Assembly: GCA_964016885.1 (NCBI GenBank)
Contig: OZ024740.1
Location: 428,172,001-428,236,000, forward strand
Length of the DNA stretch: 64,000 bases
Direction: 5' to 3'
Source: Eledone cirrhosa
Lineage: Eukaryota
Position 1 is the stretch's first letter. Each line of letters opens with the position of its first letter. Below, in pieces: positions 16,749 to 16,955 of the stretch. Position numbers and translations under genes: made by a program. The notes beneath the pieces are model-generated. The model had not been told where the DNA came from. It saw only the letters and a program-made list of their open reading frames with translations, and did not search any database.

Positions 16749-16955
16749 AACGAAGGAAATGTGGTAAGGAACCAGGCGGACCATAACGCACCAAAGTACT
16801 CAATACTTAGGGTAACAGAGTGGGTAATAGGAACGAGTAGGACCCCGACGGCTGAGCTCAAACCGTTTCGACGGCTAATTCTGGACTTTAAAAATGTCCA
16901 GAATTAGCCGTCGAAACGGCTTGAGCTCAGCCGTCGGGGTCCTACTTGTTCCTAT
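16749..16955. mobile_element. Fold-back PLE relic family K, copy 1
   Basis: About 60-bp inverted arms 16827-16886 / 16896-16955 plus a 78-bp tail on the left, inside (TA)n. Arms carry the hammerhead 3' half GAAA-CGGC..GCCG-TC. Confidence 0.85.

Follow-up and report, generated by a model that had tools for sequence, protein, structure and literature searches.

Inverted truncated copies, tails, TA targets, promoters in the pLTR and two start sites are already known in Penelope-like elements (PLEs). Closest to the elements studied here, designated family K, are the PLEs of the Hydra clade, which in the parts of their description considered here (PMC8557442) share with K a size of about 3 kb, a single ORF, a hammerhead in the pLTR and (TA)n targets. 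They also share an RWK-like motif, which is RWR in K, the DKT motif, a CxCX5C linker, CxxC and CxH motifs flanking E/N with no CCHH, and the presence of an inverted 5'-truncated copy with a one-sided tail (PMC8557442). K differs from them in carrying a U3-A8 core instead of the canonical one and a tail of 78 nt instead of 30–40 nt. Those parts of the source describe 5' truncation as a general feature and give it neither a fixed end nor a connection to the start of transcription (PMC8557442). The hammerheads of PLEs, including some with U3-A8 covariation, have been described as type I motifs located in the pLTR with a long helix II, and pairs of such motifs lie 100–700 bp apart on opposite strands (PMC4209133). 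In comparison with those hammerheads, K has a helix III of 4–5 bp and a stem II whose loop region of about 40 nt holds a putative core promoter.

The promoter and start site lie inside the pLTR of Drosophila Penelope (PMC2377424), as they would in K, and the Adineta Penelope elements resemble K both in having a promoter and start in the pLTR, with TATA plus Inr, and in their head-to-head inverted repeats with junction palindromes (PMC3846280). In vitro, the PAc Poseidon element cuts and extends both target strands, its tail corresponds to the span between two internal RT start sites, and uncleaved RNA serves as template (PMC11167929). A multi-copy tandem mRNA is proposed there as template, unlike our reading of K, and neither run-off at a capped 5' end nor joining of two cDNAs is described for PAc in the parts of that paper considered here (PMC11167929). 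In the PLE literature searched, mainly open-access papers and their main texts, we found no link between the turn point of the inverted copies and the start of transcription. Here we propose that K palindromes, the commonest product of the element, are probably paired cDNAs that ran off the RNA cap from two primings and were joined head to head, a reading that comes from genome sequence.

Family K palindromes and their parent element

The window, a stretch of 64,000 nt (G000:C1:428172001-428236000) from a 3.0-Gb animal genome, was searched with a K arm as query. Five palindromes and one tail-only fragment were recovered, the K probe giving 9 matches where 0.09 were expected, and TA flanks are present at all five palindromes. 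K is numbered from the A of AGTCC as +1. The features are as follows.

16701–16748, no strand: left (TA)n target repeat, read from the sequence
16749–16955: focal K insertion; its minus arm covers +1 to +139, its plus arm +2 to +61, and 8 nt of A/T separate them
16749–16826, minus strand: tail of the focal left arm, matching +62 to +139 in the RNA of the element, with the putative downstream RT start site at its outer end
16827–16887, minus strand: focal left arm, +1 to +61, with its 5' end exactly at +1, the putative transcription start
16888–16895, no strand: 8-nt A/T junction insert, untemplated by the parent when compared with long copies
16896–16955, plus strand: focal right arm, +2 to +61, tail-less, found with the arm query; its outer end is the putative upstream RT start site
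16905–16940, plus strand: 3' half of a type I hammerhead, from the fold of a long copy and pair counts over 18 distinct rows
16956–17085, no strand: right (TA)n target repeat, read from the sequence
19238–19456, no strand: K palindrome in which both arms reach +1, the right arm with an extra G before +1
20351–20588, no strand: K palindrome with an 11-nt stutter (20490–20525) whose unit starts at +1
34516–34598, plus strand: tail-only K fragment, about +57 to +139
57133–57336, no strand: K palindrome, older and more diverged, with its tail on the right
63754–63925, no strand: K palindrome turning at +12/+17

The first-pass annotation had placed the focal copy at 16827–16955, which misses the 78-nt extra tail carried by one arm; the true insertion runs from 16749. 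The hammerhead half in the right arm consists, in order, of the 3' strand of stem II, GAAA (16913–16916), stem III and the 3' strand of stem I, with cleavage predicted after C16935 (+41). That the K copies keep only the 3' half of a hammerhead proved correct, the 5' half being absent from 5/5 palindromes of the window. That all turn within the same short zone holds for four of them (+1/+2), and the fifth turns 11–16 nt further 3'. Spacers are indeed variable, and the 11-nt stutter is present in the sequence. Its unit, starting at +1, fits a realignment on the repeated AG. Such stutters are rare, with 36 exact doubles genome-wide compared with 19,953 arms reaching +1, and on this count telomerase-like repeat addition was rejected as the main feature.

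The window holds other structures besides. A complete CTGATGA-type hammerhead of another family is found at 16582–16615, 130 nt to the left of the focal insertion. A 3.8-kb inverted repeat spans 35808–39603 (arms of about 1.8 kb in total, 97–98% identity, 162-nt spacer), and a palindrome with 223-nt arms at 99% identity lies at 62242–62710. A tRNA-like match at 9683–9740 (33.4 bits) is probably the head of a SINE, and clusters of overlapping stop-free frames, 200–616 codons long, occupy 1041–6720, 29670–31557 and 45381–46759.

Genome-wide, a 30-mer from the K arm has 27,646 exact matches. K is a piece of about 140 nt from the pLTR and 5' UTR of a coding, Hydra-type Penelope-like element, covering +1 to +61 or +140 of an element of about 3 kb, and short K arms share subfamily variants with the long coding copies. 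The parent was read at locus L075, where an inverted arm, a pLTR with tail and the ORF are followed by another pLTR that stops at +61; from +1 to its 3' end the parent spans about 3.1 kb, and more if the full 3' UTR is counted. The last unit of this locus (L075:6224-7027) is devoid of about 427 nt of 3' UTR that are present in the upstream unit (L075:2677-3989), and the ends are T-rich, not GT-AG. At L075, L072 and L074 the pLTRs are arranged in partial tandem, together with an inverted copy that is 5'-truncated and a one-sided tail. The ORF starts at +232 and encodes 719 aa with RT plus GIY-YIG-type motifs (YRDD and VIY..YIG). It has 2,054 homologs, some of them with PF01541, and part of the members among its atlas neighbours carry GIY-YIG and RVT_1, while scans of the ORF or its alignment against Pfam, NCBIfam and PDB gave no match. 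Compared by eye with the list published for the Hydra clade, the protein shows RWR, DKT, a CNCPDRSIC linker, CNLC and CKH; a single Cys lies between the GIY and YIG halves, and CCHH is absent. The K parent is probably an EN+ PLE of Hydra clade type, an assignment made by motifs and layout. The element also occurs in contigs of a second organism label, with a lower word share (0.23, runs X1–X5).

Where K arms end and what marks the turn

The outer (3') ends of K arms cluster at +61 (106/251 arms) and at about +140, the 120 arms scored at +144 including matching TA flank. These two classes of outer end are shown for the insertion products, and two start sites have an in vitro precedent in another PLE. 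At the inner end the arms fall off a cliff: 19,953 reach +1, 4,862 reach -7 and 3,116 reach -47, all counted with one shared 19-mer, which amounts to a loss of 76% over 7 nt past +1 and of 36% over the next 40 nt, mutation contributing to both. Among 319 K arms from sampled loci, a set enriched for K and mapped to a single reference, 226 end within -10 to +10 and only 2 within -40 to -11, while 43 are long and 48 shorter; the most frequent 5' end is +1 itself (55/319). DNA chosen by position (864 kb, contigs C1–C4) gave 21/37 K arms ending between -4 and +5, 4 long and 12 shorter. The edge is a few bases wide, with many arms continuing on template to -1 to -4 and a few to -9, and in many arms the first base past +1 tracks the template of the subfamily (A in 65/100 vs G in 54/100 among the arms listed). 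An apparent peak of ends at -4 was discarded, being largely partner-arm sequence that matches a second subfamily. Ends at the predicted ribozyme cut (+42/+43) were found in 4/82 tail arms, a very small count.

K accounts for 106 of the 195 short-spacer palindromes found in 1.27 Mb, and several other families make up the remainder. Eight families were mapped against natural long copies. The members of J, M and Q in the window are as follows.

20140–20250: family J palindrome, turning just upstream of a CTGATGA core, with TATAAAT 30 nt before the turn in long copies
27805–27957: family M palindrome, turning about 42 nt upstream of the core, with TATAAAA 30 nt before the turn in long copies
49833–49978: family Q palindrome, unrelated to K and an atypically short member

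The zone from -40 to -11 is empty of ends in J (0/59), M (0/37), N (0/21) and P (0/59), while about 9/50 J palindromes extend to -4 to -14. A TATA-like box starts at -29 in K, -30 in J, -30 in M and -32 in N, and J and M have in addition a CCAAT near -80. The edge tracks the TATA-like box in these four families, K being the weakest case: its box varies among subfamilies (TATTCAAA, TATTCATT, TATTCATG, TATTTATT), and the first letters of the box also serve stem II. The spacing recurs in 3/5 independent families (p ~1e-6 for a background of 0.005 per 4-nt window, with a motif set chosen after data inspection). Families P and Q have an edge and no TATA box, and R and S have no clear edge. The position of the box, at -30 in J and M and near it in N, would fit a putative Pol II core promoter at +1.

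Full-length LINE-1 inserts carry a cap-derived extra G at the 5' junction (PMC11702581), and an extra G is likewise found at the junctions of K and J. In J, the first cDNA base past +1 was C in 58, G in 40, A in 2 and T in none of 100 arm ends listed from 365 palindromes (hand count), where the template base would give G. The C:T ratio of the first added base in K was 17:3 among 100 arms listed from 2,722 palindromes and 26:2 among 100 listed from 222 palindromes (hand counts). K arms stopping at +5 served as control and gave A 13, T 13 and C 6 among 32 (hand count), the other 68 of the 100 listed rows having been set aside as point mutants; the difference between C:T of 43:5 at +1 and 6:13 at +5 is significant (Fisher p 5e-6). 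A scripted count on the sampled loci found a weak C excess, 16:5 at +1 compared with 5:6 elsewhere. G at -1 was absent from the long K copies among the 100 listed. Some reverse transcriptases put a C on blunt ends even when no cap is present, which is a caveat here. The extra G at +1 ends is an indirect sign that points to the start of a capped RNA. Separately, past +1 the cDNA end carries added runs of 10–15 A at the L173, L187, L140 and L001 junctions.

Alternatively, the template's 5' end at +1 could arise by RNA processing (a nuclease, splicing or another ribozyme) rather than by initiation. Such processing would account just as well for the cliff and for the run-off additions; besides, K has a pyrimidine tract plus AG before +3 and its TATA box is degenerate. 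The exact spacing of TATA at -30 with CCAAT in J and M, together with the extra G, nevertheless favours a capped start, and we consider processing improbable. The splicing variant was rejected on end positions, since an acceptor site would put ends at +3 or +8, where only 13 and 1 of the 319 arms end, compared with 55 at +1.

The turn had first been attributed to a long perfect stem II of the hammerhead, which would stall the RT and so let the ribozyme fold dictate the DNA junction. In order to assess this, the long copies are informative: a motif ACCCC-TTGANAA-G lies about 40 nt upstream in 3,116 genome matches, which span the whole ribozyme. K arms are therefore not always joined at stem II. 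A genuine type I hammerhead is indeed represented in the arms by its 3' half, and the turn does fall in the loop of its stem II. A long copy folds directly as type I at minimum energy (z -0.56), and across 18 distinct rows 99% of the helix positions are paired, compared with 16–53% in slid controls, with no two-sided change. The core is UUGA(G/U)AA, a U3-A8 variant, and not the CUGANGA box expected of the source element. When CTGANGA was searched within 30 nt upstream, 21 matches came out, all of them spacers or joins to other sequence; several are hammerheads of other families. Instead of being long and perfect, stem II combines 7 bp with a large loop region and an A-U/G-U helix of 4 bp. The left arm of a palindrome mirrors the right arm as its reverse complement and does not represent the true 5' strand of stem II. 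Self-cleavage at GUC after +41 is predicted for the complete motif. In the window there is no Rfam hammerhead match, and a full K copy is absent from it. Among copies selected by motif, the 5' end of K was also found to abut hammerhead regions from other families directly, in some cases via short homology (L003, L006, L014, L015, L016, L017 and L020, near position 1500).

The idea that the RT, on a longer RNA, stalls in stem II or where the small helix closes at -1 has in its favour that the K edge falls in the stem II loop, that the 4-bp helix at -16 to -1 closes right at -1 and stays paired in both K subfamilies via one-sided changes, and that the turn of one Q copy falls within that copy's stem II. 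This copy is the palindrome at 49833–49978, which had been credited with the geometry of K; the palindrome is real but its family is unrelated, and Q arms most often end about 70 nt upstream of their core (6/18 arms within 10 nt of that point). Against a stall, folding at the edge is weak (-0.3 to -3.2 kcal/mol in K, J, M and N; -0.9 to -3.2 kcal/mol in the edge window), while stronger stems are passed, the K RT traversing a window of -10.5 kcal/mol downstream of the edge. The hammerhead core lies at -43 in K, +7 in J, +43 in M and +44 in N, so that the edge is 43 nt inside the ribozyme in K and upstream of the core by 6 nt in J, 42–43 nt in M and N and 69 nt in Q. Since the distance from edge to core differs among families, the turn does not track stem II. 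In addition, a stall predicts neither the extra G nor a TATA box at -30, and it is decidedly improbable as the cause of the junction. In M and N the core that follows about 43 nt after the edge is TTGAAAA (U3-A8-like).

Pairing of the two arms

The joining of two cDNAs, which the first-pass annotation had coupled to the stem II stall, likely stands on its own, the stall being contradicted by the lack of a stable fold at the edge and by the other families. Exactly one arm is tailed in 84/86 parsed palindromes. Among 132 head-to-head pairs, 85 have inner ends no more than 8 nt apart; the tail-less arm reaches further 5' in 25 and the tail arm in 13, 6 pairs do not overlap, and 3 have the same tail state. 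Element sequence from the same strand that is not adjacent in the element is joined to +1 in 3/167 arms, at two loci, so that imprecise jumps from +1 do occur.

Could a single cDNA fold back, or prime itself on antisense RNA, to make the second arm? Head-to-head palindromes have been read as antisense self-priming in Adineta (PMC3846280), while the K data favour two sense-templated cDNAs that end at the start site. The arms of a palindrome share their haplotype in 56/59 cases vs 0.30 expected, and many joints are short perfect palindromes, as fold-back copying would have it; a shared haplotype is, however, also expected if both arms come from one RNA or one source locus. There are 20/132 pairs in which neither arm is contained in its partner, namely the 6 that do not overlap and 14 in which the tail-less arm leads by at least 15 nt at its 5' end (hand count), which excludes fold-back copying as the source of these pairs. 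Moreover, each of the two arms often has an extra base of its own. We regard fold-back and antisense self-priming as very unlikely.

That K might be a self-propagating non-autonomous palindromic element, as had also been suggested, is hardly credible despite its high copy number (27,646 matches) and the recurrence of some short joints, given 67 distinct junctions among 86 palindromes with only 2 long junctions occurring twice, short arms that carry the subfamily variants of the long coding copies, and the existence of a coding parent. With junctions mostly distinct, the palindromes are not spreading as clones, and K resembles neither a retrozyme nor a clonal palindrome, the short arms being devoid of the hammerhead 5' half and the junctions mostly unique.

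One further arrangement was noted at L218 (G000:C1:27009485-27010052), a direct tandem of units from +1 to about +254 with a period of 257 nt, as if a cDNA had run off at +1 and then jumped repeatedly to the 5' UTR/ORF start.

A proposed route from cap run-off to palindromes and its meaning

If K palindromes are paired run-off cDNAs, the following route may be drawn. Pol II would start at +1 inside the pLTR, which in K falls in the loop of stem II. With the start there, the 5' end of the mRNA would carry only half a ribozyme; in J the start precedes a complete hammerhead, and the J templates must thus have been uncleaved, as described for PAc. Both ends of the cut TA repeat would be primed, at two internal sites of the RNA; the insertion products show that both target strands are extended, one from about +61 and the other from about +140, and such extension is known in vitro for another PLE. 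With 61 or 140 nt of template left, the RT would reach the cap, often add C or a few A/T, and stop, and the cDNA ends would then be joined through 1–4 nt of microhomology or short inserts. A minority may continue into the upstream pLTR and give the long copies, which is a weaker part of the route. This could occur by a template jump to the 3' pLTR, possibly via the stretch of 41 nt that separates +1 from the predicted cut, or on read-through RNA; the latter accounts for the seamless long copies as well as jumps do.

In LTR elements, minus-strand strong-stop DNA is primed near the 5' end of the RNA, runs off the cap and requires a jump to continue. The K products would differ from strong-stop DNA in being primed from a nicked TA repeat of the genome, in coming as two simultaneous cDNAs and in being integrated themselves after run-off. 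One tentative idea, which we consider rather doubtful, is that PLEs replicate as target-primed LTR elements: the pLTR would correspond to U3-R-U5, strong-stop DNA begun 61 and 140 nt from the cap would jump via the 41-nt redundancy to the hammerhead-cut 3' end of the RNA, the 5' ribozyme of K would be silenced by the start in stem II, and the short arms, tens of thousands in number, would be failed transfers.

How inverted repeats and full-length copies are made by PLEs, which are telomerase's sister group, is left open in the parts of the three accounts considered here (PMC8557442, PMC3846280, PMC11167929). Cap run-off would replace the idea of antisense self-priming with a prediction that is testable in the existing in vitro system. 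If initiation takes place 60–140 nt from the cap, copying of the ORF needs a jump or a tandem transcript; forming the RNA's 3' end becomes a candidate job for the pLTR hammerhead. If true, short head-to-head palindromes would be the expected failure product of these elements, and the transcription starts of PLEs could be read from genome sequence alone.
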